NCBI GenBank assembly: GCA_016178055.1
Contig: JACOUC010000036.1
Location: 9 to 64,008, forward strand
Direction: 5' to 3'
Origin: Chlamydiota bacterium
GTDB lineage: Bacteria; Auribacterota; JACPWU01
DNA: 64,000 nt
The position numbers and the translations under genes are program-made. The notes beneath the pieces were generated by a model that did not search any database, was not told where the DNA came from, and was given only the letters and a program-made list of their open reading frames with translations. This document shows positions 3,931-19,887 of this stretch, one piece after another (within the stretch, counting starts at the first letter, position 1; each line of letters begins with the position of its first letter).

Positions 3931-6900
3931 TCACATGCTTCGTTCCGTCATCTCCGTCGCTTCACGAAATTTTTCCATTTGATCATGCCAACGGCTTACA
4001 TTTGCGAAGGGCGTAACCTGATGCTCGTCCACATCCACAAGCAATCCTTCCAACTCATCAGGTTTAAAACCATGCTGAAGCAATGCTCGGGTAATCGCTT
4101 CGGCATCCCCATAACAAATGGCAGCCATCACGGACACCATCTCCTGACCGTACATGAATTTGTCAAAGAGCCCTTGAATGGGTTCATATAAGTTCCTATT
4201 TTCGCGATGCCCCAGCAGCCACTTTTCTGCCTCCTTCCCGCGAAAAAGTTCCCTCACTTTTGTATCGATTGCAGATCTCGCATCTTGTTCATTCAAATCT
4301 GTCAGGAAAAGAACTCTATCTTGAGGAATTTGATGTTCCCTGCAAAGGGTATCAAACTCTTCTCGAGATCTTTTTCGTTCCACAAAAACCATTTTACGAT
4401 TTCCTGTTTCGGATTCTTTAATAAATTCTGTCGGACTCAAACCTCCCAAACTTTGAACCGGTAAATCCATATCGGGGAATAGACAAACAGGTTTTTGATC
4501 TGCAGATGGTTTTAGAGCCGCTAAAAATTTTTTCTGAAAATGACGCAGCTTGGTTTTTAATCCAATCAGATAAGCGAGGGCCAAAGATAAATCTCTAGGC
4601 CGTGACATCTGAACGTGTGTGACACCCAGCGTCTGGGAATTCAGCTGAGCGGTCATTTCTCCTATTTCCATTTCGAATGACGCACCATTCATATCCTGTC
4701 TGATAGACCAAGTCACATCCCCACTAAAGTCGAGCGTAATCGAGCTTTGCTGAAATTCTCCTCTTTCTACCTTTCCTTCAAGCTCTTGCTCAATATTTTG
4801 AACTGTTTGACCCAACCCCTCCTCATCCAAAAGCCTCCTTGCCTCTAGCTCGAGAGAAAGTCTTTCAGTTTTTGCCTGATGAGCCTCTGCCTCTCTAATA
4901 AGATCCGGATGTTTGACTTGGATCATGAGTTCGACCAGTACAGCATCTAAAGTCTTAAGATCATTCTCTGAAAGCGATGTCTCTTTAGCAAATGAATGTG
5001 TCGCATCTCCCAAAGTCCAAAGAATGTCATAAACGGTATGGCTCTCCATCCATTCCCTTAAGGAAAGTCCCGCCGTTATGTTCTCCTGGGCCCAGGATTC
5101 AAAATTTTGAATTAAATTTTGTTTATGGAATTGAACAACGCCCTCTAAAATTCTAGACTTCAAAGGTTCATCTTCGGGCACCAAATGAAGATAAGCTGAA
5201 AAAATTTCTACTAAACCCTTTCGTTCATTGATGGCCCTAACAGCCGCCCGAACACTGGCCCAGGGGAAGGCGTCTCTTCCTTGATAATGACAAACCAAAA
5301 GGTCCGCTCGATACAACCATTTGTTTATCTCTGTAAAAAAGGCATTTGTCTCGTCAGGGTATAACGACCGAATCCCTGAAGTGTTATAGCCCGGGAAAGA
5401 CAAGCCCGTTATAAGAAATTCTACAGAGGAGTAAACTTCATACTCTGGTTGAAACGGGATGGCCTCTTGATAAAGGCAGTATTGATTCTCACCAACACGT
5501 TGAATCACCAAATAAAGATCTTCATTCTGATTTTCAAAATAAATTTCCCCCCTCGGTAAATTTAAAAAGCAAACGCCTTGATGGGAAAGACGCTTTAACA
5601 ATCTCTCCACCACCTCCTGTTGAGTCTGGGTCAATAAATAAAAAGGCTGAATGGCATTTCCAGATTCATCAACCCAATCGACCCCCTTCGCCAAAAACCT
5701 GCGTTCTACCCCTTCATCAGGTTTCTTTAAATGGTGTAAAGTCATGCTAAGCGAAATAAAATCAAAAGATTCTGCAGAACGATTCTGCATAAACGATTCA
5801 CTCATTACATCATTTTGAGGAATTCTGGCGTCAAGATATGTCACCCCTTCTACATCCGTTTGTCCTCTCTCCCTAAAATCCGCACTGTTAAAAGCACTCT
5901 CTCTGATCTCTCCACTCTCTAGCGAATAACTGGGGAAAAAGGCATCTGTTCCTTCATAGCTAAAATGGGTCCCGGGCAAAGCCTCTTCAAAAGTTTTTCT
6001 CAAAAGATTGAGCGTGGGAGCCCCATAAGCCTTCGGGGCAGATCCAATGTCCAGCCAACGATAATGGTCTTTATGAGGTATCGACAAATGAAGTGAAGGA
6101 AGGTGAGTGGGAATCCATTCCGCTTCAACACCAAAGGGATTTGCATAAAGATGATACATGTCCAGTAAATATCGAAACTGAGGATTGATTTGGATAAACC
6201 GGACAATCGGCTCTCTTGAAAAAATATCTCTTCCTTCAAACATATTCACCACTGCAAGTGCAAGAGGCATGAAACGATGTTCTCCACTGGCATGCCAGGT
6301 CATGAATTTTAGAAAACGCACTATATTTTCTAAGACCTCTTTTCGCCGAGTCTCTGGCAAAGCAGCAACGATTGATAAAATCTTTCCTGCCTCTCGATGT
6401 CGTTCATCGTCATTAGCAAAATCCAACCCGAAAATAGCTGCAATTCCTTCTAAAATATTTTTCTCTTCAATCGTTTGGTGATTAATCTCCGTATAAATTC
6501 GTTTAATCTCAGTTAAGATATTCGTCCGACGCATAACACCTAAAAACAACTTCAAATGTCTCTCCAAATTCGCCTCTCGGGAAAACCTCTTGCCAGCCAC
6601 TTGTCTCGCCCTTTGTCCCATCGTAACTCTTAAATTTGGATGACGGATTAATTCCTCAATTTTCCCTCTAAACGCTTCAACATTTCCAGACTCAACAATA
6701 CAGCCTGTTTCTCCATCCACAACTGTTTCAGGCAATCCTCCCGATCGAGAAACAATAACGGGTTTTCCCATACTTTGAGCCTCTAAAGACACGAGACCAA
6801 ATGTTTCCTCATTTTTTAATGGTTCATCTCGTCTGCTTGGCATGGCAACGATATCGGAAAGAAAATACCAATCTCTCATTTCTTCCGCACTCAAAGGGCC

Positions 6901-9900
6901 TAAAAGAACAATTAAAACACCCTCTTCACGCAAATGTTGAATTTTCTCATACAAAGACTCTCTGAACTGTCTATTGTAGTCGTCATCTCCGTCTCTCAGC
7001 ATATCCTCCGTGAAACCCGCAATGACAACAGCCGCATTCCTCTTTAAATCATTTGATAAGCCCAATATGGCATCGAGCACGACGTCATATCCTTTCCGTT
7101 CCACTGGACGGCCCGACATCAAAATAACTGTCTTACCGGACAAAGAATGATTTACTCTCAAGTCATCTGTTTTGGTAGTAGTCACATAACGAGGATCGTA
7201 AAAACTTAAATCAGCAACAGGATAAAGGCACTCCACTTCAACACCAAAGTCCTTCTGAAATCTTTTTTGAACAGACTCACTAACCGTCAGAGCTAAATCA
7301 GCTTTCTTAAGAATATTTACCGTATTCGGAGAGAAAAATCTTGAATCACCAACCAAATCTTCTGGGACTCGATCTAACAAACGCCAGGGCCCTGAGTGAA
7401 ATTCTTGGATCACAGGTATTTTATTTTGTTTTCCGAACGCATTAAAAGCATTCCCTGCATAGTGAAAAGAAGATTCACTCACAATGAGATCTACTTTACC
7501 CTCTTCTTGTAAAATTTTCCTTAACAAGCCATTGACTTCATCTGCAAGATCTTGCCCTGGCTCATTATTCTGACGAGTCATATGAATTTGAACAACGCCT
7601 TCCAATTCCGATGAAACGACGACTTTACCCCCATCCCGTTTCAATAATGGAGACACCCTTTGACCACCACCCAGAACAATCACATGGATTTTGAGTCCTT
7701 TAATCTCTTGAGCCAATAATAAAAGCAGATGATCCATATAGGTCGATACCCCATTCATCTCCAAATACCCAGGGGCATAAAAAACAAGCACTTTTCCCGA
7801 AAATGCCTCTTTGAGTTGAGATAAGTTCTCTGTTGTTGAAGCTTCCCCCTGTGTAACAGTAATCGAACCCTCTGGACTTGTTTGGGAACCTTGGTCATCG
7901 TTCGCATCATCCCCTAACACCCCCTTCTGATAAAGGGCCCCTGTGACCGTTACCCAATGATTAGAGACAATGTGGGCAATCAGGCCCATGGCCAAAACCG
8001 GCCAGAGGCGAAGTATATTTGAAAAAAGGTTTGATACAACACTCGTCGGTTGAATATCCGGAAGAAGACCAGCAAGGGCAATGTCAGGTTGAATTAACGA
8101 AGTTAATATCAGCAACCCCATGCCCACTACTAAAAAAATCGCTGCTCTTTGACTCTTTCCCTTGACTTGCCTAAGCATCTGTCCTACGATTCCTGCCATG
8201 GAAGAAAATAAATCTGAAAATGATTCCGTAATGAAATCAAGCCACGTGGCTGTCATTCTTGAAGACCTTCGAGGCCAATTTAAGGTTTTTGGAGAAGGGT
8301 TATCCGGACTTCGTGAAAAGACAGAGGAAGGCTTCGCAAGAATCGATAAAAAGTTCGACCGTATCGAAAATGAGCTTGCTAATTTTCGCGTTCGTGTGCG
8401 CGGAGTTGAAGACGGCAATGCACGTATAGAGACCAAAGTCGATAAGATCGAAACCCGACTAGAGAAGGTTGAGACCAAGGTTGATAAGATCGAAATCAGG
8501 CTAGGGAAGATCGAAACCCGACTAGAGAAGGGTGAAATCAAGGTAGAAAAGATTTCAGAAAGTAACGTCCGAATTGAGGCCGATCTTAGGATCATCAAAA
8601 ATCTTGTCAAAGTGAAGGTTGATTTGGAAGAATATAAAATTCTGGAAGATCGTGTTGCCCTTCTTGAATCAAAATTTGCTGCTCTAGCGAGATAACGCGC
8701 TCCATACAAATTCCACACCAAATAAAAAGTTATCCCAACCACCAAAATCATCTCCCACGATGAGAGCCCTGTACGGAAAAATCCAAGAAGTGAGACCAGA
8801 GAAATCAAGGTTGGAATGAAAATTCTTCTGAAGCTAGATGAAAAACCGCTCGAAGCTCGAGGCTCAAAGCTCGAGGTAAATACTTCTTCGGTTCTTTGCT
8901 TTTCCCTCGAGCTTCGAGCCTCCAGCTCATTTTTAGCTTCTAGCCGCCTTTCATGCCCCCACACAAACACCACTCTCAAGACGGCGTAGAGCACAGGACT
9001 TCCTAAAGATAAGGCCCAAATAAAAATTTCTTCGATAAAAGGAACAACAAAATCTTCTTTAAAATCTCGACTCAAAGACTTTCGTCCAAGAACATTTACC
9101 CAAAACCAGTCGAGAGGTCGAGTAACCTGAGACGCCAGCCAATAGGAAGGAAGAAGAACGCCTTTGCCAGAAGAGAAAGAACCTAAAGCAGGATCAACAT
9201 AGCGACTTATAAATGCTTTTAACTCTTGCACTTTAAACAGAGGTTTTTCAGAAAGTTTTCGGGCTTGAATCTCATTAATATAGTGATTGAGCCAAACTTT
9301 TGCTAATTCTAGTCCCTCCTTATTGCCATGTTTTTTCATCATCTCTAGCAAAAATCCTTGCATGACCCCTGTTCGAAGAATGGCATCATGCCCCTGGCCA
9401 AGACTTTCATGTCGATAGCCCTTCTCACCTTCCCTCAACGAGCCAAGCCAGTGTAAATTAAAATAGTAATCAAGAAAGTGAGATGGATCGATCCCTCTTT
9501 TAGTTCCCCGCCATGTGATGAGAGAGAATTTCATTTCCCGACCCGAAATAACAGAAGCTCTCCCTTGTGCCGCTGTCAAATCTCGAACATCCACTCCCAC
9601 ATCTCCTGCATTAATTCTAAAGCCATCAATCAGGGTTTGAGCCTCAGGATTATAGTAACGAACCAAAAACCGTCCCATGGCCGCAAGGGTATTGATCATA
9701 TCTCCAGGCTCAACAAAAGCGCCCCACTTTCCAGGCAAACTTGTATTAACGAGTAAATATCCAGGAGGGATTCGATTTGCCCAAGCATGATGAGGCGAAA
9801 TATACTGAATCTCATCCCGACCATTGATGAATCGACTCGTGTAGGCGCTCACTTTTCCTTCCTGAGTCTCGACCTCTCCATCACGCAAAACCTCGACCAA

Positions 9901-12900
9901 TTCTGCATCCCCGCGATGGCTTAAAAGGGCTTGATACTCACTCGATGTAACACGTGATTTTTCTTGTGCGTCTCTGGCCATGACCATCACCAAAGGAATC
10001 ACTTCCTTCGTTTGTTTTAAAGTTGTCAAAATAAAATAAATATTCTGATAAACCCCCTCTTGAAGGCGAATGACTTGAACAGGAAATTCAATATCATCTA
10101 AAGAAAGTTTACGCCCTCCCAATTCATCCTGAAGAGAATCGAGCAAAATATTTCCCTCTCCCGTTTCAAGATTCTTCATCAACAGAGCCTCAACCGCATT
10201 TCTTGATTGTGCCAATGTCAAATCATTGCGATCCCGAGGCACATCCCACTGATCTCCCTGCCGCCACTGACCCGCTCGATAGAGGTCATAATGGCAAATC
10301 CTACCCCCTTGAGCCATCGAGGCATTGTCCGGCATTTTCTCCATCGCTTGAGATAATCTTTGATAGATCTCAAGCGTCTGAGAGAAAGTGGAGGGCATTT
10401 TGGTTTTGAGTATATTCAGCTTTGATTGATAACGCTCAAGCAAAGTCCGATCCTGCAAAATCACAAAATTGACTGCTGTTAGAAATAAGAGTTGGTCTAC
10501 TTGACTCTGAATCGCCCCTTCAATAAGTTTTCCAAGTGTCCCGATCTCCTCGGAAAGCAAGGCCTGTCTCACTTCTTCTGTGATACGCTGATGCACATTT
10601 TCTCGTCGAACCACAAGAGGTTGAAGAGTAGAGGCTGCAGGCAAAGCAGTTTCACCAGACAAAATATGCGCCTCAATAAACCTCCTCAACGCCTTGCCCA
10701 GGGGATTTTTGCCTTCGCGATTGAAAATTTTATCTGTGAGCTGGATAATCTGAGGATGCGTAAGACGGGTTCTTTCCAAGGCCTCATGAAGGGTCGCTTC
10801 ATCCACCAGATCCGAAATGCCAGTGCTCTTTTCCTCCGCCTCAAGAAACTGCATCAGATTGACCGCCAAAGCGCTTTCAGAGCCCAAGAAATATTTTTCT
10901 CTGCTCAAGACCCGAGCCTCAAACCATTTGAAAGCCTCTCGAGGATTTTGAAGAGCCGCCAAGACCTTTACTATTTCATCGTTTTCAATTCCTTGCTGAA
11001 CCAATGTGCTCCAAATCTCACTTCCAAGGCGCCCAGCCAAAGCCCTCGAGCGTTCTTCCACAAGCGTTACAACAGGCTCATGGGAACTTCTCACCTTGTC
11101 ACTTTGCTCTTCAATTTCTCTTCGCCACTGGGCTTCTTCGTCAGGCGTAACCTCTGGGCCAATGATGTTGCCTGAAGATGGCTCTTCTTCACTTAAGGCG
11201 AGTGACGGAGATTGGGAAGTTTGAAGTTGCCACACAATTTTAGAAGATCCATCACCATTCGTCGTTAACACCTGACTCCCATCTTCAGAAAACTTAGCAG
11301 AGCGCACCCAATTTTTTCCTCCATAAAAAGTCTCAAGGAGCTCTCTTGTTTCAACATTCCATACTTGACCACTCCAATATCGAGTTCGCTCTAGGTAATA
11401 GTTATATTGATCACCCCCCCAGCTTGTTTCAGTTCTATCAAAACGCATTGTTAATACTGTACGTCCATCAGGGGAAACAAGAATATGAACAAGTTTTTTG
11501 CCCATGTATTCCCTATAACGCTTGATAATGCGTTCCTTTGCTTCTTCGGTTAATAGAGAATCAGGAGATCGAGGAGTCGTGGTACCTAAAGGAGCGTCTG
11601 ACGCTGTCGAAGTTACACTTCCTTTTTTCCCCCTCTTTCGAGAAGGACTTGACGGAGGTGTGACTGTTGCTCCAGCAGAGTCAGCTGTTATCGTTGTCGT
11701 GGTCGAATCAGCCCCTGAGCCCGTTTCATCTCGCACAGGTTCAGGGACTATGACTACTTTTGGAGCTTCCGTACATTCCATCCTCAACCAATATGTCACT
11801 TCATTCTCCCCTTCTGTAAAGCCCAACTGACACCCTGGAATAGATGCCATTTGTGCCTTGAGTTCGAGTAGTTTATTCCTGACATTGGATTCTCCTGATT
11901 CTCTGAGACGAAGGGCCTCCTGTCTTGCAGCTTCAATGTCTGGATATTCACCGGTGAGATGTGTTTTTAAGAATTTCTCTTCGTTGGCAGACATTCTTCC
12001 TTCTCTGACAATCTGAATATTAAAGTGGCCTTCTTTTAATTCACTTCCCAGTTCAATGAATCGGCCTGGGTTGTGGGTTTTGGCGATGCGGACAAATTCA
12101 TTGAGCCAGTCTTTTGCGATGGGTCTTTGTTCTTCTGGTAGAGGGAGAGCTTGTGTGAATGGGGTGATGGCTGCATCTTTTAGTTGGGGGTCGTTGTGGT
12201 TTGAACGCTGCCTTTGTTGAGGGGGTGCAGGTAAAGGGGTTCTGGCCCAGAAGCAGCCATATTGTCCATTCATCTGATCGGTTTTGGGAGCGGTTCTTTC
12301 AGAGTCGATGAGATTTGAAAGCACGGCTGGCTCCACCCCATCATTCTGAGAATCCACTGTTTGGCCGACGAGTCCCATGATCTTCTGAAAGATGGGAGCG
12401 ACAGCTTGAGAAGCTGATAATCGATTGTCTGAAGGGGGCGCAGGGTCGAAGGTGAATTGAAAGCCTCTTTCTGGGTTGATGTCTATGTGGAAGGTTCCGC
12501 CATTGAGAATGTGGCCTTGAGCCATTTCTTCGAGGATTCTGTTGCTTAAGGGGTCTCTGATCTCCTGTTCGATGAGTCGTCGTAAGGGCCGTGCCCCATT
12601 GATGATGTCATAGCCTCTTTGAGCGAGGGTTTCATAGACGTTATCCGCGACTTCGACTTTGAATTTGTTTTCTGTGAAGTCACTGAGTTCCCGTTTTAAG
12701 AGGATGCGAGCAATTTGTCTTATGTTTTCAGGGGTGATGACGTTGCAGGCGATGATGTGGTCGATGCGGTTGATGATTTCAGGTTTGTATTTGGCTCTGA
12801 TGCTGGTTTCTACGGTTTGGGCAATGAGGTCGTTCATTTGGGTAATAATAGCTTGTGTTGCCTCTTCTGTTTCTGCGGTTTTAAGTTCTTCAGCCAGGGT

Positions 12901-15900
12901 TCGTAATGGACCTTGTATTTTCTCCATGCCAATGTTGGAGGTCATGATGATGAGGGTGTTTTTGAAGTCGACGGTGTTCCCTTGGCCGTCGGTGAGTTTT
13001 CCTTCGTCGAAGACTTGCATGAGGGTGGTAAGGACGTCCGAATGGGCTTTTTCGATTTCATCAAAGAGGAGAACGGAATAAGGACGTTTGCGGACGGCTT
13101 CGGTGAGTTGGCCGCCTTCTTGGAATCCCACATAACCCGGTGGGGAGCCGATGAGTCTGGATTTTTGATGGGATTCTTGGTATTCACTCATATTGAAGAC
13201 CGTTAAGGCCTGGTCGCTGTCAAAGAGGAATTGAGCTAAGGCTTTAGCCAGTTCTGTTTTGCCTACGCCTGTGGGGCCGGCCATGAAGAAGACGCCCATG
13301 GGACGTTTGCGCTCACCGGGGATAGCCCGGGCACGACGAATGGCTTGAGCGACGGCTTTGATGGCGTCTTCTTGGCCTACGACTCTTTTATGGAGTTCTC
13401 CTTCGATGTTCAAATATTTGGCTGCGTCGTCTTGGTCTAAGGCACCGACGGCCATGCCGGTCATGTCGGCTAAATATTCCTGGACGTCGGCTTGGGTGAT
13501 GCGGATGTCTTTTCTTAAATTGGATAATCGGCTCAAAATAGTATGGTAAGCCTCGAGTATGCCGATCATTTGGTTATGGACTTCGATGACGGTGGGGTCG
13601 GTGTCTGGAACTCCTTCTTTTTTAAGGTCGATGTATTCGTTAATGACGCTGTGGAGACGGTTGAGGAAGTCTTCTTTAGTCATTTCTAGACTGTTCCTTC
13701 GGGCGTTGACTCGGCCCATGGTTCCTTCTAAGACGTCAATGGCTTTGCGGGGTTGGGATTTTTCAGAGAGATAGCGTTGGGCGCATTTGACAGCGGCTTT
13801 AATGGTAGCACGATCTATTTTGAGTGAGAATTTTCCTTCTAAGTAGGTTTTGGCGCCCGTAAGAATGGTTTCTGTTTCCTGGACACTGGGTTCAGGGACA
13901 GAAACTTTGGTAAACCTGTCTTCGAAGGGTTTGTCTTGTTCGATGTAGGCTTTGTATTCAGGGTCTGTCGTGGCCCCAATCACAGTGACTCGCCCTTTTT
14001 CCAGGATGGGCTTTAAGAGGTCTGCGATTCGGGTGTCAATGCTGTTGCTGGGCCCTTTCAATAGGAAATGGATTTCATCGATGAAGAGAATGACGTTGTT
14101 GTTGGTTTTTTCAAGGAGTGGGATCAGTGTTTTGAGGTTGTCTGACATCTCTGAGAGGGTGCTTCCTAAAGCACCCGCTTTAAGGGCAATGATTCTCCTA
14201 CCCTTTAAAGGGCCATCGAGGTTGTTTCGGGCAAGTTTCAAAGAGACGAGTTCGACGAGGGCTGTTTTACCGACTCCTCTGGGGCCGACAAGAACTAAGC
14301 TGTTTTTGATTCTTACTGGAGTGGCCAGACGAGCCATGATGCGGCCGATTTCTTCAGAGCGCCCCACCAATGGGCGAGCGCTGTCAGCTTCAAGAGCGAG
14401 GTCATAGGTATAGTCTTTTAATACCTGCCACTCTTTTTTCTTTTGACCATTGCCTAAATCGACATCTGCGTTCAGTCCTATTCTCTTCAAGTAATCATCC
14501 AGGGGCTCCATCGGAGACTCACCTACAGAGAGTCGAAGGAATGGGACACCGAGGAGATATCCTAAAAGACCTGCAACTACGGTAAACAATAAGGAAGCAA
14601 TCGAAGATCTCCCATTGATCATCGAAGCCCCCCATGGTACTATTTTGATAAAGGAGGCTTTAAAATGTCCGCGAAACTGCAAGAGCTGACGGAATTGATG
14701 GGAGAATTGGAGCCTAAAAGTCTTTCTCGACGAAGTAGAAATGTTGCCAAAGCGCTCTTGGGTAGCTGCCGCGGCCTCATCACGCCTCGAGGTAAGTCCT
14801 CTACCCGGTGGATCCGACAAGAACGTTCCTCCCTCCACAGCAAGGTGAGATAGTTCTGTGCCCTCATTACCAACACTCATTCTCGATACAGATGTCATTG
14901 TCAACTGGCTATCGGAAGAGCTTGAAACAGGAACAGGTCGAGAGTTATGGAAAGCCCCATTTGACATTATCTCTAAAGCAGAAGAAGGTCGCTCTAGTGT
15001 ACTCATTTGTCTTACAACTCTGTTAGAGCTTAGATTTCTCTTGAGGAGAAAGAAACGGCTGAGTGACGCTTCGATTCGGTCTATTATTAATCGAATGTTC
15101 CAAATTATTTCGGTCAATGTTCCTGACAAAACTGAATTGCTCAGGGCCAACCATCTCCAGAGCCTCCATCCTTTGGACCCGTTTGACGCAATACTGCTCG
15201 CTTGCGCCATGTCGTCTGAAGAAGCTATTCTTGTTTCTCGTGACAAGCCACTCCTTCGCATTGCATCTGAATTCCTTGAAGCACTTAACCCTGAAGATGC
15301 CCTCGCCAAAATTTCAAAGTCTTGAATAGCATCAATGCTAAGACGAAAAACCGGAGAGCCAAAAATCCATCCTAAGAGGCCTGTCCCTATGGCTAATAAC
15401 ACAGAACCAATTTTGAGGATGTGTTGAGCATGTGTATGCTCTCCTTTTCCATCGCCATGAGAATGGGTGTGAGCGGGTTTCATCACTATGCTTGAGGTAG
15501 GGCCTCCTTCATTTGAGGATTGAAGAAGTTCGAGGATTTTAAATTCATCGAGCCAATTCCCAATGGCTTCTACGACGCTTACTCCGTCAGGGAGCCTACA
15601 CTCTTCTATAAGTTTTCTTACAGTGGCTTCATCATCGGCCCCCATTTTTCCCATTTCACGCAGTTTTTCAATCAGCCTGGGCGTTAAGGCCTCACGAAAG
15701 CGCTCTTGAGTATAAGCACCGCTATTGATCATTTCATCCAGGGCCTCAGGGACGGCATGGGAAGCAGCATGTTCTGCGTCTTCTGAGTCTAAGTTGCTTT
15801 TGATGTCGGGATTCTTTTCGGCATCTTGAGCAAGTTGCCGCCCGATCCGGCCTAAGATCTGAGTCAATTTCTTCGCCGCTTCGTCTAGTTTTTTCTGAAT

Positions 15901-18900
15901 AAATTCTTCCTTCATGAGAATATTGGCTTGAATCTCTTTAAAAGGCTTACCGTAATGCTGTTCCAGCTCTTTTTGAAAAAGTTTAATAAAAAGGTCCCGC
16001 GTCTTAGGATCAGCCGTTTTTAATCGATCCGCCAGAAATTCACGTAAGGGTCTTTCCTCACACCAGCCCAGGGCACCAAAACCAAAGAATGCAGATATGG
16101 GAGACGTCATTGCGAGGAGCGAGAGCTCCGAAGCAATCCCAGCTTTGCGCAAAACAGAGATGGCTTCGTCGGCTTCACCTCCCTGCAATGACGGCCAAAC
16201 ATAGCTTCCATCCAAAGACGGAAGAGGCAAAAGATTCACCAACCCTAAAGCCAAATTAATTTTGACTCCCCAAATAAGCGGGCCCATTAAAAATCCAAAA
16301 GGCCCAACGGCATTAGCGGCAAGGGCCCCTACCGCAAAGACCACGGCCAAAATTAAATTACTCACCGGCCCCGCAAGCGCTACTTTCTTCATCGAAGATT
16401 CTGAGAGCCGCCAAGAAGAAATAGGAACGGGCTTTAACCACCCGATCGGAATCCCGATCAAAAGCGTAGACGCTAAAAAAGAAATCGTCCCCCAAAAATC
16501 TAAATGCCTCCAAAACCTGAGCAACGTCAATCGCCCCGCCTCCTCAGCCGTCCGATCCCCCAACCTCGCCGCCAGCCATCCATGGGCATATTCATGAAGA
16601 ATCGCGGAGAAGAGAATAATTGCTATCAATGGAACAGCACTTCCTAAAAGGCCAGGGTTGGCCACAAATACAGCGGCAAAAGGAATGCACAAAAAGACAT
16701 AAATATTCTTGACTTGCCCCGGACTTGATTCTATGATTTTTCTCATGAATGAGAAAAAGACTCCAAAACCTATTCCTACTCCAGAAGAAGCCCAGCGATA
16801 CAACTCCGTTATTATTGAGGAGATGAGAAGCCAATTTAAGGTTTTTGGCGAAGGATTAACCGGTTTTAGAAAAGAAACGAATGCACGATTTGACAGACTC
16901 GAAGAAGTCGTTATGGATACGCGTGAACGTGTCTCTAGGGTAGAGAATAGACTCACCAAAGTTGAAGAGAGCAACGCTCGCATTGAATCTGACATTCGCC
17001 TCATCAAAAACCAAATCAAAGTCAAGGTGGATTTAGAAGAATTTAAAGTACTTGAAAATCGGCTTGTGATCGTTGAAAAAAGACTGGCTGCCCTTCCCAT
17101 CTCCGCTTGATTAGCGCTATTTGAAACTCTTCTGGAACCCCCTATACTGCGTATCAAGCCATCCACATCCCCCACATATCCTCCTAATTCCAAGGCTCTT
17201 CTAAGGTAAATTTCTATTGAATGAGCCGTTTGTGCGTGACTCAGGAAAAATCGCATCTGATCTTGCGTGAGCGTAGTCACGCGTTCAAGCCAAAGAAGAG
17301 GGTTTTTCTGCAATTCATCGGAAACTTCCGAACGATTTTCCTTTCCCGCTTTCCTCTCTATTTCTCGAATAACCCCTTCTAAATCTCTCGCCACCTCCTC
17401 CCAATTTTCTAAATTAAGTTCTCGGGCCAAAACCTCTTGATCCCTTTGCCATTGATCAAATTGGAGAGCCGTAAGCCCCGCAGCAAAAGCAGCCTCTTCT
17501 CCCAACGAGCGTATTTCCTCAAGAAAATGAAGCCTCGCGATTTTCTGAAGGGTCGGAAGTGAGGCTTCTTTTAAAGCATCAGGAGCGCCCGAAATAAATC
17601 CAAATTGCTCTTTCATCTTCCTAAAATAGGCGCTGCGATCGTCATGACCCGTCATACGAGGGGCAATGACCCAATAACCGATCTTGGCCTCTTTCAATTT
17701 CTTCGTGATCCCCTCCGTATGAAACCCACCCACCACAAGCGCTGCACAGGGAAGTTTCTTTTCCTGAATTAATTTAAGAGATTTTTCGAACATGATTTTG
17801 TCTCGTTTTAGAACTTGAGTGTAGAATTTTTGGGAGAGGTTAAAGATTTCTCCAAAATCAGGAGATTCATAGTCTATTGCTTCCTTTTTAGCTAATTCGC
17901 CAAGTTGAATTAGAAAATCTCCGATAAAGTCGTTCGGGCCTGCTTGGCTCGAGGCTCGAGGATAATACTTTGCTCGAGGCTCGAAGCTCGAGGCTCGAAG
18001 TAAATGCTTCTCCAGTTTTTGCTTTTGCCTCGAGCCTCGAGCTTCGAGCCGTTTTATGTCTTCCCTACTTCCTTCCATCGCAATCACACGCCTGAGTAGG
18101 TCATAGTCTTTTTCTAACGCCAGCAGCTCTTTCGCCTGAGGCGTTGTCGCCAAATTTTCAACGAGTTCTCCTTCGAGGTTTTTAATTTCTTCATCCAACT
18201 TCTCCCAAGAGATTTGTTTTAGGAGAGACATTTGTTGAATAAGGAGTTGAAGATTGGGATATGGAGCTGATTTCTCGACAGGCTCGAAACGTTTATTAAT
18301 TCTGTTATTGGAGTGCTTCTCGACTGCGCCTCTCGCTCCACTATCGTTTCTCGACGCGTTTCGACTAATGTCGAAACTTGCTTGAAAACTAAATTTATTG
18401 TTCGAGCGTAGTCGAGAACCTTCCTTCGCGTCCTCTACCTCCTCCTGGCCCCTCCTTGTGGTTTGCGCCGTGTTAGGCTCCAACCACTTCCTCGTCCACC
18501 CGCTACGGCGGGTACCCGGACTTGGTCGCAAGGAAGGGAGATTATTTCCCTCTAGCTTCGAGCCTCGAGCCTCGAGCATTCCTAAGTACTTGCTTAGGAA
18601 CAAATAATGCTCTTCATCACTGGTTCTGCCCAGCCGATGCTCTAAGATATTTCTCAAAACTTCATTGAGTTCTTCTTTTGGAAGCTTCTTCTCTAGTTCA
18701 GATAAAAATAAGAGGTATTCAGACTCAATTTTTGATGCGTCCGTTTTCTTTTCGAGTGCTTGGAGTCGAAGGTAGAAATCAAGCTGGGGGTAGTTTTGGC
18801 TCGAAGCTCGAGGCTCAAGGCTCGAGGAGGAAAGAGGAAGAGATTTATTTTCTACATTTTCAGTTTTTCCTTTTGTCTTTGCTTTTGCCTCGAGCTTCGA

Positions 18901-19887
18901 GCCTCGAGCCTTCAGCCCGTTTTCCGCTTCTAGCTGCTTTACATATTCCCCCATCTCTATCTTATGCTCCCTATACTTCTCCCTTTCTTCAATGAGCTCT
19001 ATCAATTCCTTTGGATAAATTTTTTCGGACAAACCCCTAAATATATCATCTAAACCCTGCCAGACATGCTCTTGTAAATTCCTCTCCTTCAAAAGCTCCC
19101 CCATCGCCCTTAAATTCTCGACATAATCAGACAGTTCTTCCACCCCCACTCCCTTAACCTTTTTTGGCCCTTCCTTAACGAGAAAAGTCTCCACCCCATC
19201 GAGTTCATTTTTATCCAAGAATTTTTTGAGAAGAGAAGCTAAAACCCTCTGATCTGGGAAAGACCAGAAAAAGGACATGTCCATTTCACCATCAGCAGCC
19301 TCACAAAATATATGAAATGGTTTAAAATTCTCAGATACGGCTCTAACTTTGAGATTGTTTTGGCTCGAAGCTCGCCCGCCTCGCCTGACTCGTTCGTCAG
19401 ACGAGTCGCCGCCTTTGGCGAGCCTCGCCCTTTGGCGGGAGGTGGGAGGCTCAAGGCTCGAGGTAAATACTTCTGCTTTCTTTGCTTTTGCCTCGAGCTT
19501 CCAGCTTCGAGCCTCGAGCCCGTTTTTTTCTTCGAGCTTCGAGCCTCGAGCCTCTAGCTGCTTTTGTAAAATTTTCAACATCCTCTGAATATTCTCTTGC
19601 GCCTGAGAATTACAATGAATATCTTCAATAATGAAGAGATGAGGTGCTCCGGGGACATAGAATTGATCGGTCACTTCCCCTATTTCATGGGGAATACGCA
19701 TCTCCTCCAAAACTGAACTTAAATCGAGGGATTTGCGATCCACAGGATTAAACTCATTTACAGAAGTGACTGCTTTCAAATGAGTTGCGAATTGAGTATT
19801 CTGGCCAACAGAATAAGAAATGTCATAAAAGAGGAAGGAAAAACAAACGCACAAACTAATCAATGAACGCATAAACCTGACAAGCAT
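3931..19887 (-). CDS. Giant composite ORF1. Order: signal/TM, ChaN/TraB-like N-domain, M50 protease, Clp-type 2xAAA+, beta-propeller-like segment, large unknown region, GT4 glycosyltransferase, SAM-methyltransferase-like block, unknown C-terminus. It may be four fused cistrons.
   Basis: No stop from 19998 to 3931 (5355 codons). Likely start is ATG 19887 (MLVRFMRSLISLCVCFSF, signal-like), preceded by GAGAGGGG. The blocks are separated by stretches that are antisense to real plus-strand genes. In the ORF1 frame these stretches translate as S/T/L/R-rich low-complexity sequence. Confidence 0.55.
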   Translation of the reverse strand: MLVRFMRSLISLCVCFSFLFYDISYSVGQNTQFATHLKAVTSVNEFNPVDRKSLDLSSVLEEMRIPHEIGEVTDQFYVPGAPHLFIIEDIHCNSQAQENIQRMLKILQKQLEARGSKLEEKNGLEARSWKLEAKAKKAEVFTSSLEPPTSRQRARLAKGGDSSDERVRRGGRASSQNNLKVRAVSENFKPFHIFCEAADGEMDMSFFWSFPDQRVLASLLKKFLDKNELDGVETFLVKEGPKKVKGVGVEELSDYVENLRAMGELLKERNLQEHVWQGLDDIFRGLSEKIYPKELIELIEEREKYREHKIEMGEYVKQLEAENGLKARGSKLEAKAKTKGKTENVENKSLPLSSSSLEPRASSQNYPQLDFYLRLQALEKKTDASKIESEYLLFLSELEKKLPKEELNEVLRNILEHRLGRTSDEEHYLFLSKYLGMLEARGSKLEGNNLPSLRPSPGTRRSGWTRKWLEPNTAQTTRRGQEEVEDAKEGSRLRSNNKFSFQASFDISRNASRNDSGARGAVEKHSNNRINKRFEPVEKSAPYPNLQLLIQQMSLLKQISWEKLDEEIKNLEGELVENLATTPQAKELLALEKDYDLLRRVIAMEGSREDIKRLEARGSRQKQKLEKHLLRASSFEPRAKYYPRASSQAGPNDFIGDFLIQLGELAKKEAIDYESPDFGEIFNLSQKFYTQVLKRDKIMFEKSLKLIQEKKLPCAALVVGGFHTEGITKKLKEAKIGYWVIAPRMTGHDDRSAYFRKMKEQFGFISGAPDALKEASLPTLQKIARLHFLEEIRSLGEEAAFAAGLTALQFDQWQRDQEVLARELNLENWEEVARDLEGVIREIERKAGKENRSEVSDELQKNPLLWLERVTTLTQDQMRFFLSHAQTAHSIEIYLRRALELGGYVGDVDGLIRSIGGSRRVSNSANQAEMGRAASLFSTITSRFSSTLNSSKSTLTLIWFLMRRMSDSMRALLSSTLVSLFSTLETRSRVSITTSSSLSNRAFVSFLKPVNPSPKTLNWLLISSIITELYRWASSGVGIGFGVFFSFMRKIIESSPGQVKNIYVFLCIPFAAVFVANPGLLGSAVPLIAIILFSAILHEYAHGWLAARLGDRTAEEAGRLTLLRFWRHLDFWGTISFLASTLLIGIPIGWLKPVPISSWRLSESSMKKVALAGPVSNLILAVVFAVGALAANAVGPFGFLMGPLIWGVKINLALGLVNLLPLPSLDGSYVWPSLQGGEADEAISVLRKAGIASELSLLAMTSPISAFFGFGALGWCEERPLREFLADRLKTADPKTRDLFIKLFQKELEQHYGKPFKEIQANILMKEEFIQKKLDEAAKKLTQILGRIGRQLAQDAEKNPDIKSNLDSEDAEHAASHAVPEALDEMINSGAYTQERFREALTPRLIEKLREMGKMGADDEATVRKLIEECRLPDGVSVVEAIGNWLDEFKILELLQSSNEGGPTSSIVMKPAHTHSHGDGKGEHTHAQHILKIGSVLLAIGTGLLGWIFGSPVFRLSIDAIQDFEILARASSGLSASRNSDAMRRSGLSRETRIASSDDMAQASSIASNGSKGWRLWRWLALSNSVLSGTLTEIIWNIRLIIDRIEASLSRFFLLKRNLSSNRVVRQMSTLERPSSALEIMSNGAFHNSRPVPVSSSSDSQLTMTSVSRMSVGNEGTELSHLAVEGGTFLSDPPGRGLTSRRDEAAAATQERFGNISTSSRKTFRLQFSHQFRQLLQFRGHFKASFIKIVPWGASMINGRSSIASLLFTVVAGLLGYLLGVPFLRLSVGESPMEPLDDYLKRIGLNADVDLGNGQKKKEWQVLKDYTYDLALEADSARPLVGRSEEIGRIMARLATPVRIKNSLVLVGPRGVGKTALVELVSLKLARNNLDGPLKGRRIIALKAGALGSTLSEMSDNLKTLIPLLEKTNNNVILFIDEIHFLLKGPSNSIDTRIADLLKPILEKGRVTVIGATTDPEYKAYIEQDKPFEDRFTKVSVPEPSVQETETILTGAKTYLEGKFSLKIDRATIKAAVKCAQRYLSEKSQPRKAIDVLEGTMGRVNARRNSLEMTKEDFLNRLHSVINEYIDLKKEGVPDTDPTVIEVHNQMIGILEAYHTILSRLSNLRKDIRITQADVQEYLADMTGMAVGALDQDDAAKYLNIEGELHKRVVGQEDAIKAVAQAIRRARAIPGERKRPMGVFFMAGPTGVGKTELAKALAQFLFDSDQALTVFNMSEYQESHQKSRLIGSPPGYVGFQEGGQLTEAVRKRPYSVLLFDEIEKAHSDVLTTLMQVFDEGKLTDGQGNTVDFKNTLIIMTSNIGMEKIQGPLRTLAEELKTAETEEATQAIITQMNDLIAQTVETSIRAKYKPEIINRIDHIIACNVITPENIRQIARILLKRELSDFTENKFKVEVADNVYETLAQRGYDIINGARPLRRLIEQEIRDPLSNRILEEMAQGHILNGGTFHIDINPERGFQFTFDPAPPSDNRLSASQAVAPIFQKIMGLVGQTVDSQNDGVEPAVLSNLIDSERTAPKTDQMNGQYGCFWARTPLPAPPQQRQRSNHNDPQLKDAAITPFTQALPLPEEQRPIAKDWLNEFVRIAKTHNPGRFIELGSELKEGHFNIQIVREGRMSANEEKFLKTHLTGEYPDIEAARQEALRLRESGESNVRNKLLELKAQMASIPGCQLGFTEGENEVTYWLRMECTEAPKVVIVPEPVRDETGSGADSTTTTITADSAGATVTPPSSPSRKRGKKGSVTSTASDAPLGTTTPRSPDSLLTEEAKERIIKRYREYMGKKLVHILVSPDGRTVLTMRFDRTETSWGGDQYNYYLERTRYWSGQVWNVETRELLETFYGGKNWVRSAKFSEDGSQVLTTNGDGSSKIVWQLQTSQSPSLALSEEEPSSGNIIGPEVTPDEEAQWRREIEEQSDKVRSSHEPVVTLVEERSRALAGRLGSEIWSTLVQQGIENDEIVKVLAALQNPREAFKWFEARVLSREKYFLGSESALAVNLMQFLEAEEKSTGISDLVDEATLHEALERTRLTHPQIIQLTDKIFNREGKNPLGKALRRFIEAHILSGETALPAASTLQPLVVRRENVHQRITEEVRQALLSEEIGTLGKLIEGAIQSQVDQLLFLTAVNFVILQDRTLLERYQSKLNILKTKMPSTFSQTLEIYQRLSQAMEKMPDNASMAQGGRICHYDLYRAGQWRQGDQWDVPRDRNDLTLAQSRNAVEALLMKNLETGEGNILLDSLQDELGGRKLSLDDIEFPVQVIRLQEGVYQNIYFILTTLKQTKEVIPLVMVMARDAQEKSRVTSSEYQALLSHRGDAELVEVLRDGEVETQEGKVSAYTSRFINGRDEIQYISPHHAWANRIPPGYLLVNTSLPGKWGAFVEPGDMINTLAAMGRFLVRYYNPEAQTLIDGFRINAGDVGVDVRDLTAAQGRASVISGREMKFSLITWRGTKRGIDPSHFLDYYFNLHWLGSLREGEKGYRHESLGQGHDAILRTGVMQGFLLEMMKKHGNKEGLELAKVWLNHYINEIQARKLSEKPLFKVQELKAFISRYVDPALGSFSSGKGVLLPSYWLASQVTRPLDWFWVNVLGRKSLSRDFKEDFVVPFIEEIFIWALSLGSPVLYAVLRVVFVWGHERRLEAKNELEARSSREKQRTEEVFTSSFEPRASSGFSSSFRRIFIPTLISLVSLLGFFRTGLSSWEMILVVGITFYLVWNLYGARYLARAANFDSRRATRSSRILYSSKSTFTLTRFLMILRSASIRTLLSEIFSTLISPFSSRVSIFPSLISILSTLVSTFSSRVSILSTLVSIRALPSSTPRTRTRKLASSFSIRSNFLSILAKPSSVFSRSPDNPSPKTLNWPRRSSRMTATWLDFITESFSDLFSSMAGIVGQMLRQVKGKSQRAAIFLVVGMGLLILTSLIQPDIALAGLLPDIQPTSVVSNLFSNILRLWPVLAMGLIAHIVSNHWVTVTGALYQKGVLGDDANDDQGSQTSPEGSITVTQGEASTTENLSQLKEAFSGKVLVFYAPGYLEMNGVSTYMDHLLLLLAQEIKGLKIHVIVLGGGQRVSPLLKRDGGKVVVSSELEGVVQIHMTRQNNEPGQDLADEVNGLLRKILQEEGKVDLIVSESSFHYAGNAFNAFGKQNKIPVIQEFHSGPWRLLDRVPEDLVGDSRFFSPNTVNILKKADLALTVSESVQKRFQKDFGVEVECLYPVADLSFYDPRYVTTTKTDDLRVNHSLSGKTVILMSGRPVERKGYDVVLDAILGLSNDLKRNAAVVIAGFTEDMLRDGDDDYNRQFRESLYEKIQHLREEGVLIVLLGPLSAEEMRDWYFLSDIVAMPSRRDEPLKNEETFGLVSLEAQSMGKPVIVSRSGGLPETVVDGETGCIVESGNVEAFRGKIEELIRHPNLRVTMGQRARQVAGKRFSREANLERHLKLFLGVMRRTNILTEIKRIYTEINHQTIEEKNILEGIAAIFGLDFANDDERHREAGKILSIVAALPETRRKEVLENIVRFLKFMTWHASGEHRFMPLALAVVNMFEGRDIFSREPIVRFIQINPQFRYLLDMYHLYANPFGVEAEWIPTHLPSLHLSIPHKDHYRWLDIGSAPKAYGAPTLNLLRKTFEEALPGTHFSYEGTDAFFPSYSLESGEIRESAFNSADFRERGQTDVEGVTYLDARIPQNDVMSESFMQNRSAESFDFISLSMTLHHLKKPDEGVERRFLAKGVDWVDESGNAIQPFYLLTQTQQEVVERLLKRLSHQGVCFLNLPRGEIYFENQNEDLYLVIQRVGENQYCLYQEAIPFQPEYEVYSSVEFLITGLSFPGYNTSGIRSLYPDETNAFFTEINKWLYRADLLVCHYQGRDAFPWASVRAAVRAINERKGLVEIFSAYLHLVPEDEPLKSRILEGVVQFHKQNLIQNFESWAQENITAGLSLREWMESHTVYDILWTLGDATHSFAKETSLSENDLKTLDAVLVELMIQVKHPDLIREAEAHQAKTERLSLELEARRLLDEEGLGQTVQNIEQELEGKVERGEFQQSSITLDFSGDVTWSIRQDMNGASFEMEIGEMTAQLNSQTLGVTHVQMSRPRDLSLALAYLIGLKTKLRHFQKKFLAALKPSADQKPVCLFPDMDLPVQSLGGLSPTEFIKESETGNRKMVFVERKRSREEFDTLCREHQIPQDRVLFLTDLNEQDARSAIDTKVRELFRGKEAEKWLLGHRENRNLYEPIQGLFDKFMYGQEMVSVMAAICYGDAEAITRALLQHGFKPDELEGLLVDVDEHQVTPFANVSRWHDQMEKFREATEMTERSM
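5560..6070 (-). other. ORF1 block: class I SAM-methyltransferase-like region
   Basis: WLDIGSAPKAYGAPT (motif I-like) and FDFISLSMTLHHL (motif III/post-II-like). Weak call made by eye. Confidence 0.35.
6530..7800 (-). other. ORF1 block: GT4-type (GT-B) glycosyltransferase domain
   Basis: VLVFYAPGYLEMNGVSTYMDHL at the N-terminal end of the block. GRPVERKGYD and the EX7E-type ETFGLVSLEAQSMGKPVIVSRSGGLPETV motif lie toward its C-terminal end. Confidence 0.75.
8162..8190 (+). promoter_or_regulatory. Sigma70-type promoter giving a leaderless transcript of the nested coiled-coil gene (copy 1)
   Basis: TTGACT (8162..8167), 17-nt spacer, TACGAT (8185..8190), 7 nt, then ATG at 8198. The geometry is identical to 16709..16737. 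Confidence 0.6.
8198..8695 (+). CDS. Coiled-coil protein of unknown function (copy 1), nested antisense in ORF1
   Basis: MEENKSEN... with six near-perfect heptads (IETKVDK IETRLEK VETKVDK IEIRLGK IETRLEK GEIKVEK). It is a paralog of 16745..17110, sharing QFKVFGEGL and the conserved tail N.RIE.D.R.IKN..KVKVDLEE.K.LE.R. The TTG at 8162 used by the ORF track is the -35 box. Confidence 0.7.
   Translation: MEENKSENDSVMKSSHVAVILEDLRGQFKVFGEGLSGLREKTEEGFARIDKKFDRIENELANFRVRVRGVEDGNARIETKVDKIETRLEKVETKVDKIEIRLGKIETRLEKGEIKVEKISESNVRIEADLRIIKNLVKVKVDLEEYKILEDRVALLESKFAALAR
8848..8945. repeat. In-frame palindromic (GCTCGAG)n hairpin element
   Basis: Left arm 8848..8876, loop TAAATACTTCTTCGGTTCTTTGCTTTTC, right arm 8905..8928. 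In ORF1 it translates as LEAKNELEARSSREKQRTEEVFTSSFEPRASS. Confidence 0.85.
12480..14420 (-). other. ORF1 block: Clp/Hsp100-type double AAA+ ATPase
   Basis: Walker A motifs GPRGVGKT (~14264..14290) and GPTGVGKT (~13255..13280). Also ILFIDEIH, VVGQEDAI, LLFDEIEKAH and GARPLRRLIE motifs. A single TM helix precedes the block (MINGRSSIASLLFTVVAGLLGYLLG). Confidence 0.85.
14615..14643 (+). promoter_or_regulatory. Sigma70-type promoter of the nested PIN module
   Basis: TTGATC (14615..14620), 17-nt spacer, TACTAT (14638..14643). It is followed by the SD AAGGAGG (14651..14657) and ATG 14665. Confidence 0.5.
14665..14853 (+). CDS. Small protein upstream of the PIN gene, putative cognate antitoxin
   Basis: Perfect SD AAGGAGG 7 nt before the ATG. 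The ORF ends 4 nt before the PIN start. No recognisable antitoxin fold by eye. Confidence 0.45.
   Translation: MSAKLQELTELMGELEPKSLSRRSRNVAKALLGSCRGLITPRGKSSTRWIRQERSSLHSKVR
14858..15325 (+). CDS. PIN-domain (VapC-like) ribonuclease, nested antisense in ORF1
   Basis: LILDTDVIVNWL at the N-terminus, LLEL, DPFDAILLACA and SRD acidic-residue motifs of PIN domains. GTG start, with AAGGTGAG upstream. Confidence 0.8.
   Translation: MPSLPTLILDTDVIVNWLSEELETGTGRELWKAPFDIISKAEEGRSSVLICLTTLLELRFLLRRKKRLSDASIRSIINRMFQIISVNVPDKTELLRANHLQSLHPLDPFDAILLACAMSSEEAILVSRDKPLLRIASEFLEALNPEDALAKISKS
16150..16746 (-). other. ORF1 block: M50 (site-2 protease) family metalloprotease
   Basis: HEYAHGW at 16582..16596 (HExxH within a TM helix) and the NLLPLPSLDG motif. 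The block begins at an in-frame Met at 16746 (MRKIIESSPGQVKNIYVFLCIPF). Confidence 0.8.
16709..16737 (+). promoter_or_regulatory. Sigma70-type promoter giving a leaderless transcript of the nested coiled-coil gene (copy 2)
   Basis: TTGACT (16709..16714), 17-nt spacer, TATGAT (16732..16737), 7 nt, then ATG at 16745. Confidence 0.6.
16745..17110 (+). CDS. Coiled-coil protein of unknown function (copy 2), nested antisense in ORF1
   Basis: MNEKKTPKPIP...IIEEMRSQFKVFGEGLTGFRKE...KVKVDLEEFKVLENRL. Paralog of 8198..8695. Confidence 0.7.
   Translation: MNEKKTPKPIPTPEEAQRYNSVIIEEMRSQFKVFGEGLTGFRKETNARFDRLEEVVMDTRERVSRVENRLTKVEESNARIESDIRLIKNQIKVKVDLEEFKVLENRLVIVEKRLAALPISA
17946..18050. repeat. In-frame palindromic (GCTCGAG)n hairpin element
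   Basis: Arms 17972..18000 and 18028..18050, loop TAAATGCTTCTCCAGTTTTTGCTTTTG. Translated as LEARGSRQKQKLEKHLLRASSFEPRA. Confidence 0.85.
18290..18577. repeat. Composite GC-richer insertion ending in a (CCTCGAG)n arm
   Basis: Contains the 20-mer GTTCGAGCGTAGTCGAGAAC (18400..18419), an internal IR CCTTCCTTCGCG/CGCAAGGAAGG, and the arm 18550..18577. ORF2 and ORF3 have no counterpart in their N-domains. Confidence 0.6.
18798..18917. repeat. In-frame palindromic (GCTCGAG)n hairpin element, long-loop variant
   Basis: Arms 18798..18827 and 18888..18917, with a ~60-nt loop similar to that of 54885..55004. Confidence 0.85.
19362..19556. repeat. In-frame (GCTCGAG)n element with a nested GC-rich hairpin insertion
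   Basis: GGCTCGAAGCTCG ... [GACTCGT-TCGTCAG-ACGAGTC hairpin] ... GGCTCAAGGCTCGAGG TAAATACTTCTGCTTTCTTTGCTTTTG CCTCGAGCTTCCAGCTTCGAGCCTCGAGCC. Confidence 0.8.

Follow-up and report, generated by a model that had tools for sequence, protein, structure and literature searches.

Leaderless genes with a -10 element directly upstream of the start codon are well documented in Actinobacteria (Mycobacterium) and in Deinococcus. Long antisense overlapping genes are rare and disputed in bacteria, and in most cases the evidence consists of expression data obtained in one strain. The Rickettsia palindromic elements (RPEs) are short palindromic repeats that occur as in-frame insertions in coding genes. Embedded antisense overlapping genes (OLGs) have been described in Escherichia coli O157:H7 (PMC9927249, PMC5960689) and in Pseudomonas aeruginosa, where the olg1/olg2 pair was presented as evolutionarily novel (PMC8850804); the others are newly found open reading frames (ORFs) inside established genes. 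Giant 'multi-enzyme' ORFs have been reported from Omnitrophota (bioRxiv 10.64898/2026.06.07.730766; West-Roberts et al. 2023, bioRxiv 10.1101/2023.11.21.568195). Here we analyse a small coiled-coil gene with a predicted leaderless promoter that lies antisense within a giant ORF, in a 64,000-nt stretch of DNA (hereafter the window) from a Chlamydiota bacterium (Auribacterota; JACPWU01 in the Genome Taxonomy Database, GTDB), assembly GCA_016178055.1, contig JACOUC010000036.1.

The gene is encoded on the plus strand and is wholly enclosed by a 5,355-codon ORF of the minus strand, the two forming an embedded antisense pair (Table 1). Gene and promoter together are called the cassette, of which the window holds two copies, copy 1 being the main subject. 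The best explanation, to which we give a probability of about three in four, is that copy 1 is a self-contained small gene with its own promoter at the ATG, placed antisense in a giant ORF whose frame would have to run through it. Comparisons relied on a scan for the gene family with one genome per species, which gave 43 loci, and on a profile search of the family in 1.84 billion cluster representatives. The comparison genomes, whose loci are given as L numbers, are metagenome-assembled genomes (MAGs), in which assembly errors are possible.

The plus-strand gene, its protein family and its promoter

Codon usage separates the two strands across the cassette. In a log-odds scan, the plus frame scored +10 to +15 and the giant frame -4 to -11 over 8176-8625, and the same picture was obtained when the giant ORFs were left out of the training set. 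A protein search returned separately called homologues of 101-137 aa with 34-40% identity. The homologue of L002 is an ordinary stand-alone gene that follows two bactofilin genes and has stops in every antisense frame, and those of L003 and L004 come after DUF433 and DUF5615 genes. In the family alignment, a coil whose length varies lies between an N-motif (VILEDxRSQFKVFGEGLxGLREK) and a C-motif (RIExDIRIIKNxIKVKVDLEEFKxLENRV); the family is characterized by a basic Lys/Pro-rich N-tail, the N-motif in the form VILEDLRSQF(K/R)VFGEGL, the coil and a conserved C-terminal helix. The profile search yielded 234 matches at E<=1e-10 and 2,089 at E<=1e-3, most of them 100-150 aa long and matching end to end. 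Between the copies that are nested in giant ORFs, the ratio of nonsynonymous to synonymous differences per site (pN/pS) was always lowest in the plus frame, at 0.18-0.59. As far as sequence comparison reaches, these observations show that the plus ORF is a real gene. A preliminary description, made from the letters of this DNA, had proposed a real gene without a Shine-Dalgarno (SD) motif, its promoter abutting the start, nested antisense in the giant ORF; codon usage, pN/pS and the stand-alone homologues support that proposal.

The six heptads that had been recognized in the encoded protein are present (IETKVDK IETRLEK VETKVDK IEIRLGK IETRLEK GEIKVEK), and this stretch makes the coil of copy 1 longer than in copy 2 and the homologues. 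An AlphaFold (AF2) model of copy 1 consists of a long helix (residues 9-138) and a short helix (143-164), with a mean pLDDT (predicted local distance difference test score) of 80. No named family was found in Pfam, NCBIfam, PHROGs, PADLOC or PDB, where the matches are to generic coiled coils and, for the last three, come from collections without curated cut-offs; the preliminary description, which could not assign the protein to a family, is borne out on this point. FlaC_arch (PF05377) was rejected as an identity, since copy 1 scores 28.2 against a cut-off of 27.8 purely via its heptad repeats. Copy 2 gave nothing at the curated cut-off in Pfam or NCBIfam, and the other homologues tested gave nothing at the cut-off in NCBIfam. 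A type II toxin-antitoxin (TA) module was also rejected, the cassette being monocistronic and matching no TA family. No family relatives were found in the viral contigs of IMG/VR, and Rfam and tRNA scans returned nothing. A metagenome scan gave mainly short contigs of unknown taxon, with one clear additional nested case and no close relative of the window.

Stand-alone copies have unrelated neighbours (TPR, GT2, aldehyde dehydrogenase, UDP-glucose dehydrogenase, SEC-C and others), which provide no functional clue. Because the number of heptads varies and the N-tail is basic and Lys/Pro-rich, we would guess that the protein forms a cytoplasmic oligomeric coiled-coil scaffold or spacer, with heptad expansion tuning its length, and that it might bind nucleic acid. 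Two other features of the family were observed. Tandem pairs or triplets of members are frequent (L020 9992-10687, L039 5198-5952, L013, L014 and L031), and the internal tandem repeats by which coil length varies differ between members (DIKTDFT in L025, ATKKELKEAIEPL in L040).

The promoter spacing given in the preliminary description, TTGACT-N17-TACGAT-N7-ATG, was confirmed at 8162-8200. The more general pattern TTGACW-N17-TANNAT-N7-ATG has exactly two matches in the 64 kb, at 8162 and 16709, which are the two cassette copies, and none in 100 dinucleotide-preserving shuffles of the window. The preliminary description had also tied its reading to conservation of the promoter in other copies. 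A search for further copies, which added copy 2 in the window and the loci of the genome scan, found the geometry shared: in 24 of 28 family members, which come from many genomes, TTGAC(A/T/G) or a sequence close to it is followed by a spacer of 16-17 nt and a TAnnnT that ends 6-10 nt ahead of the start. When the 28 members were aligned on the start codon, the base at -1 was a pyrimidine (C or T) and many had an A-rich upstream element; one member starts with GTG at the N7 distance. Copy 1 starts with ATG and, in agreement with the earlier claim, has no SD-like motif at -18 to -6. The conserved geometry of promoter and start supports the prediction of a leaderless mRNA from copy 1. A sigma-70-type promoter would start transcription on A8198 or within 0-3 nt of it, with C at -1, and 70S ribosomes would initiate on the 5′-terminal AUG of this mRNA without an SD.

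The hexamer CCATGG (8196-8201) holds the start codons of both strands, the minus ATG being in frame with the 5,355-codon ORF. This overlap of the two start codons in CATG had been described correctly, as had the reading of the -35 box as QVK in the giant frame, whose translation around the CATG is ...FSSMAGIVGQMLRQVKGK... / ...SSMAGIVGQMLRQVKGK.... Nested copies use two antisense registers, one per subfamily. The in-frame minus Met of CATG results from C at -1, in the usual Y-1/R+1 start context, combined with a particular antisense register; register-1 copies with C at -1 have it too, and in the other subfamily the codon falls out of frame.

The claim that the Met at 8199 opens the block containing the GT4 glycosyltransferase held in part. 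The codon is in frame, and a transmembrane (TM) helix and the GT4 block do come after copy 1. A membrane-helix block after the CATG Met is found at both window copies and apparently in L029; as a general rule this arrangement was rejected, since it fails at most other loci, and use of the minus-strand Met as an actual start codon is unsupported. A homology search with the GT4 block, on whether Met 8199 is a natural N-terminus, was swamped by generic GT4 words and gave nothing usable. A mirror-image leaderless promoter on the minus strand upstream of the CATG Met was rejected by eye, since copy 1 has only weak hexamers there and copy 2 lacks them. Separately, a sigma-70-like site with 10/12 matches (TTGACA-16-TAAGAT) is located at 8610-8583 (-), inside the 3′ part of the cassette ORF and facing the GT4 block; it is not conserved in copy 2.

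Table 1. Positions of the cassette, its host ORF and other features of the window, with nested genes of two comparison loci
Feature	Position	Strand	Remarks
-35 box TTGACT	8162-8167	+	TTGAC(A/T/G) kept in 24/28 homologues
-10 box TACGAT	8185-8190	+	17 nt after -35 box, 7 nt ahead of ATG
CATG	8197-8200	both	Plus ATG 8198-8200 (predicted +1 at A8198) and in-frame minus Met codon 8199-8197
Coding sequence of copy 1, 165-aa all-helical coiled-coil protein	8198-8695	+	N-motif VAVILEDLRGQFKVFGEGL, C-motif LRIIKNLVKVKVDLEEYKILEDRVALLE; evidence from codon log-odds, homologues P0001-P0004, alignment, AF2 model, pN/pS
Six heptads, tandem repeat of 21 nt/42 nt	8426-8551	+	Residues 77-118
GCTCGAG heptamer hairpin	8848-8937	both	About 150 nt 3′ of the cassette stop; in frame in the giant ORF; U-run after the stem on both strands
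Cassette copy 2, 121 aa	16709-17110	+	TTGACT-N17-TATGAT-N7-ATG 16745; same antisense register as copy 1; CATG Met opens M50 block
Host giant ORF, 5,355 codons	3931-19998	-	Block A, M50 peptidase, ClpB-like AAA+, GT4 glycosyltransferase, conserved C-terminal domain
Antitoxin-like ORF, 62 aa	14665-14853	+	SD AAAGGAGG
PIN-domain toxin	14858-15325	+	Pfam PIN_3, E = 2e-11
Heptamer array sites	8848-8937, 17947-18050, 18550-18577, 18799-18909, 19449-19558		In window
Heptamer array sites (continued)	36487-36514, 54886-55003, 55621-55641, 63041-63068, 63371-63398		In window
Nested TA-type genes, other loci	L020 8321-8812, 15569-15793; L027 5082-5333, 7388-7678		Antisense to giant ORF

The open antisense frame of the giant ORF

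Over its 16,068 nt the giant frame contains no stop codon, against 229-333 in each of the other five frames. Its Pfam domains are AAA_2/ClpB_D2-small/AAA, which make up a double AAA+ module of ClpB-like type, Peptidase_M50 and Glycos_transf_1, and further ORFs of 7,012 and 2,350 codons are found in the window. By codon log-odds, with or without the giant ORFs in the training set, the giant frame is the coding frame nearly throughout. Three islands depart from this, with a plus frame winning and the giant frame negative: 8176-8625, 14851-15225 and 16726-17025. At ~11.55-11.7 kb a plus frame also scores best, with the giant frame staying positive and encoding a Ser/Thr/Pro-rich low-complexity segment; we read this plus-frame signal as an artefact. 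The ClpB-like module (12000-14000) has a GC content of 0.49, a GC skew of +0.21, an AT skew of -0.26 and a weak codon-usage score; with skews opposite to those of the rest of the minus-coded window, it looks compositionally foreign.

Nesting is a recurrent trait of the family. The gene is stand-alone in Bacillota, Patescibacteria and some other groups, and some 20 copies are enclosed by minus ORFs of 4-18 kb, in MAGs labelled Omnitrophota, 'Chlamydiae bacterium' or with names beginning in 'Planctomycet', and in related unnamed MAGs. The locus closest to the window is L008, which reaches 82% aa identity and comes from a groundwater MAG that NCBI lists as 'Chlamydiae bacterium'; most of the other nested loci carry the label Omnitrophota. 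At the nested loci, the coding signal of the giant frame flanks the cassette on both sides and that of the plus frame lies inside. Their hosts differ in domains, which include GGDEF, AAA_11/12 helicase and NAGPA.

Avoidance of stops in the antisense frame was evaluated by resampling synonymous codons from each locus's own codon usage and scoring whether an antisense register was stop-free, the copies having been ascertained solely via the plus-strand protein. Among copies of Omnitrophota/PVC type (PVC for Planctomycetes-Verrucomicrobia-Chlamydiae), the register was open in 23 of 24 against 5.4 expected, and 0 of 200,000 simulations reached 23. Copies from other phyla (4/24 open, 3.5 expected) and random 100-codon segments of long ORFs in the same genomes (39/229 open, 29 expected) were near expectation, so the excess is specific to the family gene in Omnitrophota/PVC-type genomes. 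Giant-frame pN/pS was 0.8-1.2 in the subfamily whose register is codon-aligned. With this ratio at about 1 and 23 of 24 copies open, the giant frame appears to be kept free of stops while its amino acids are unconstrained. These comparisons show both frames to be under selection, the plus frame for its protein and the minus frame, as judged from sequence, against stops alone.

An alternative in which the plus ORF has no function and is the shadow of a low-complexity stretch that giant proteins conserve is barely credible on these data. It would account for the conservation, among register-1 copies, of the antisense peptide of the N-motif (NPSPKTLNW), but this conservation mirrors that of the plus motif, third codon positions coinciding in register 1. 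The second subfamily, in the other register, gives an unrelated minus peptide with the plus motif unchanged. In addition, stand-alone homologues have stops in all antisense frames, it is the plus frame that has the lowest pN/pS, and promoter and start are conserved. A profile of the antisense peptide, run against a protein database to count the giant ORFs that carry the cassette, gave one match and was saturated by low-complexity words.

Several observations weigh against a self-contained gene through which the giant frame must run. A very stable terminator-like hairpin, with U-runs on both strands, lies within the giant ORF just ahead of the cassette, where it should impede transcription of the giant gene in one piece. 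The majority of ordinary genes in the window also have no SD, so that its absence from copy 1 does not discriminate. By itself, copy 1 says little about stop avoidance, since its composition alone gives it a probability of 0.39-0.40 of being open, and the argument has to be made from the family. Phylogenetically, the 24 copies are not independent of one another; yet the synonymous divergence between them (pS 0.4-0.9) argues that there was time enough for stops to arise. Finally, a 1-nt frameshift at ~5490 splits the homologous ORF of L008 into ORFs of 350 aa and 1,350 aa. Either the assembly went wrong in an A-run or the disruption is real, in which case continuity would not always be required.

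That frameshift and the composition of copy 1 (P(open) 0.39) also bear on the possibility that the giant ORF is a run of separate minus and plus genes, sharing an open frame through composition or chance. Coiled-coil genes in which Tyr, His and Gln are missing naturally have few stops in one of the antisense registers; in two stand-alone homologues a register is open by chance, and the minus blocks after plus inserts begin with Met and a hydrophobic helix, like independent membrane proteins. We nevertheless consider this possibility highly improbable. All minus modules share one frame, which is stop-free over 5,355 codons where the other frames have stops by the hundred, and none of the upstream modules ends in its own stop. 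The excess of open registers (23/24 against 5.4) is missing in other phyla, and some 20 loci show a one-frame signal on both sides of the cassette.

For the preferred reading of a nested gene with its own promoter, a mechanism can be proposed. The cassette transcript would probably end at the heptamer hairpin beyond the stop codon, which resembles a bidirectional terminator and folds at -45 kcal/mol (z -4.5) and -55 kcal/mol (z -5.3). Ribosomes translating the giant gene would continue across the cassette, and the peptide made there would be a Ser/Leu/Phe-rich linker between modules, unconstrained in sequence. Two candidate reasons for the open frame are that downstream modules may be translated solely within the polyprotein, and that RNA polymerase may need coupled translation to get past the hairpins inside the gene.

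Control or punctuation of the giant gene at the RNA level, by convergent transcription and a ~0.7-kb antisense RNA with the protein as a secondary matter, seems rather unlikely to us. The near-consensus promoter with its A-rich upstream element in many members would suit such a role, as would the terminator-like hairpin adjoining copy 1 and the location of the window cassettes at module boundaries, ahead of the M50 N-terminus for copy 2 and ahead of the TM helix and GT4 block for copy 1. Conservation of the plus protein across phyla, with pN/pS well below 1, speaks against it, as does the existence of an ordinary stand-alone gene where the giant ORF is missing; moreover, an open frame through the cassette would be needless if the mRNA were simply cut or terminated there. 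We hold as very unlikely the proposal that giant ORFs are accretion products, in which ordinary multi-gene neighbourhoods would have been welded into one stop-free frame, along with opposite-strand genes that would still work from leaderless promoters of their own, with the cassettes as punctuation and CATG as a leaderless start on both strands. The antisense mRNA, whose 5′ end would be the A of CATG, would then pair with the giant mRNA and the duplex would be processed, for example by RNase III. The downstream fragment would begin at the minus AUG of the same CATG, and modules would be made both as polyprotein and separately.

Variable cargo, repeats and the origin of the nested copies

The giant ORF and L008 (JACPWU010000046) were found to be homologous by tblastn against the fetched loci, with window regions 3934-5124 and 16699-19878 corresponding to 1378-2556 and 4495-7313 of L008. 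Identity is 45-68% in Block A, including the antisense copy 2, and 82% over the last 400 residues; at the DNA level it is ~80% across the copy 2 cassette. The ~11.5 kb of the window interior that carry M50, the TA operon, the ClpB-like block, copy 1 and GT4 are not in L008, which has ~2 kb of unrelated sequence at that place. The homology between copy 2 and L008 stops sharply ~12 nt upstream of the -35 box, and the host sequence beyond is wholly different. Judged from this comparison, the giant ORF carries variable cargo in its interior.

The conserved flank has features of its own. A Block A-like domain without a Pfam match (17509-18321 (-) in the window, and the N-side flanks of L007, L008, L025, L039, L040 and L046) lies ahead of the antisense cassette at 7/19 nested loci, in both subfamilies. 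An M50-like block follows the cassette at copy 2 of the window and in L020. The arrangement of Block A, cassette and M50 may represent a conserved functional neighbourhood.

Among the lineage-specific elements are 17 arrays of GCTCGAG or its complement, mostly paired as long hairpins and all inside the three giant ORFs of the window. The arrays are stop-free in all six frames and are read as LEARGS.../...SSLEPRASS. None were present in the related MAG loci L007-L009, and three stretches of Block A without a counterpart in L008 coincide with heptamer arrays, as in-frame insertions. In these respects they resemble RPEs, or miniature inverted-repeat transposable elements (MITEs), tolerated inside ORFs. 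An imperfect direct repeat of 15 nt (13/15) brackets copy 1, at 8134-8148 (AAAAATCGCTGCTCT) and 8671-8685 (AAAATTTGCTGCTCT); it could be the remnant of a target-site-like duplication or due to chance.

The coiled-coil gene is not alone in being nested. The window carries an antitoxin-like ORF and a PIN-domain toxin (Table 1), and other giant ORFs hold nested DUF4258/DUF2283, DUF433 and HicB-like genes, with the host frame open across them. Under the resampling scheme, the probability of being open in the giant's register was 0.02 for the PIN gene and 0.05 for copy 2. Nested TA genes were open in 7/7 cases against 1.4 expected; as they were found inside open frames, this count is circular and was not taken as evidence. 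In an exact look-up in a protein collection, copy 1 and the PIN toxin were both not on record, because gene callers had taken the giant ORF.

A mobile or selfish module, made up of promoter, small ORF and sometimes a terminator hairpin, that like TA operons and the heptamer hairpins inserts in giant ORFs and survives only where the host frame stays open is a possible, if tentative, account of how the cassette came to be nested; it concerns origin and is compatible with our preferred reading. The nested position would then be due to insertion followed by filtering and would not imply that the two genes are functional partners. Such a module would explain several copies per genome in hosts with unrelated domains (GGDEF, AAA_11/12 helicase, NAGPA, M50, GT4), the sharp end of the homology between copy 2 and L008, and the extra modules, copy 1 among them, in the window. 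TA genes are nested in the same manner and also flank stand-alone copies, the hairpin arrays are lineage-specific in-frame insertions, and copy 1 is bracketed by the direct repeat. On the other side, no transposase, integrase, terminal inverted repeats or convincing target-site duplication were found, IMG/VR gave no viral match, and the repeat is possibly a chance one. Block A with its antisense cassette is syntenic with L008, and the Block A-like domain at 7/19 nested loci points to old, vertically inherited neighbourhoods. The picture suggested by sequence for the nested-gene reading is one of giant frames that would expand and diversify through uptake of DNA, with genes of the opposite strand among it, on condition that the frame stays open; some of the neighbourhoods are old.

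Implications and comparison with known systems

The cassette family represents an overlap of 0.4-0.5 kb with both strands under selection, detected from comparative sequence alone, repeatedly and over a phylum-level range. Stop avoidance provides indirect evidence that giant frames are read through, which bears on the proposed proteins of 10-150 thousand amino acids (kAA). Where stretches of a giant ORF are the antisense of working genes, or hairpin repeats, annotation of domains or topology is meaningless. Gene callers hide nested genes, as the cases of copy 1 and the PIN toxin illustrate. Linker peptides of the NPSPKTLNW type and the positions of transcription start sites (TSSs) are concrete targets in metaproteomes and metatranscriptomes.

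Like the giant ORFs of Omnitrophota, the host ORF exceeds 5,000 codons and combines unrelated enzyme domains (AAA+/ClpB, M50, GT4) with many hydrophobic segments. At 5.4 kAA it is below the set of at least 10 kAA in the 2026 preprint. The words 'antisense', 'nested', 'opposite strand' and 'stop codon' do not occur in the text of either giant-ORF paper, nor does 'leaderless' in that of the 2026 preprint. Both papers take the ORFs as proteins from gene calling, whereas stretches of the ORF described here are the antisense of real genes. The GCTCGAG arrays of the window are comparable to RPEs in being tolerated in ORFs without a break of the frame, and the cassette and the TA operon may be larger cases of the same tolerance. 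Unlike an RPE, the cassette is a complete antisense gene with a promoter and not a non-coding repeat.

The cassette family shares with leaderless genes a TAnnnT at 6-10 nt before ATG or GTG, the lack of an SD, a pyrimidine at -1 and an A at +1. It differs in that the trait belongs to one small family spread over several phyla, including lineages not known for leaderless expression, and in that the promoter lies entirely within another gene's frame; the transcription start is predicted from sequence. As in the described OLGs, an ORF with its own promoter and evidence of constraint is fully embedded antisense in a longer ORF. In contrast to these, the embedded gene is here the old and widespread partner, and the host frame appears to be merely kept open, with a pN/pS of about 1. 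The OLGs rest on expression data from one strain, whereas the present case draws on stop-avoidance statistics from about 20 loci.

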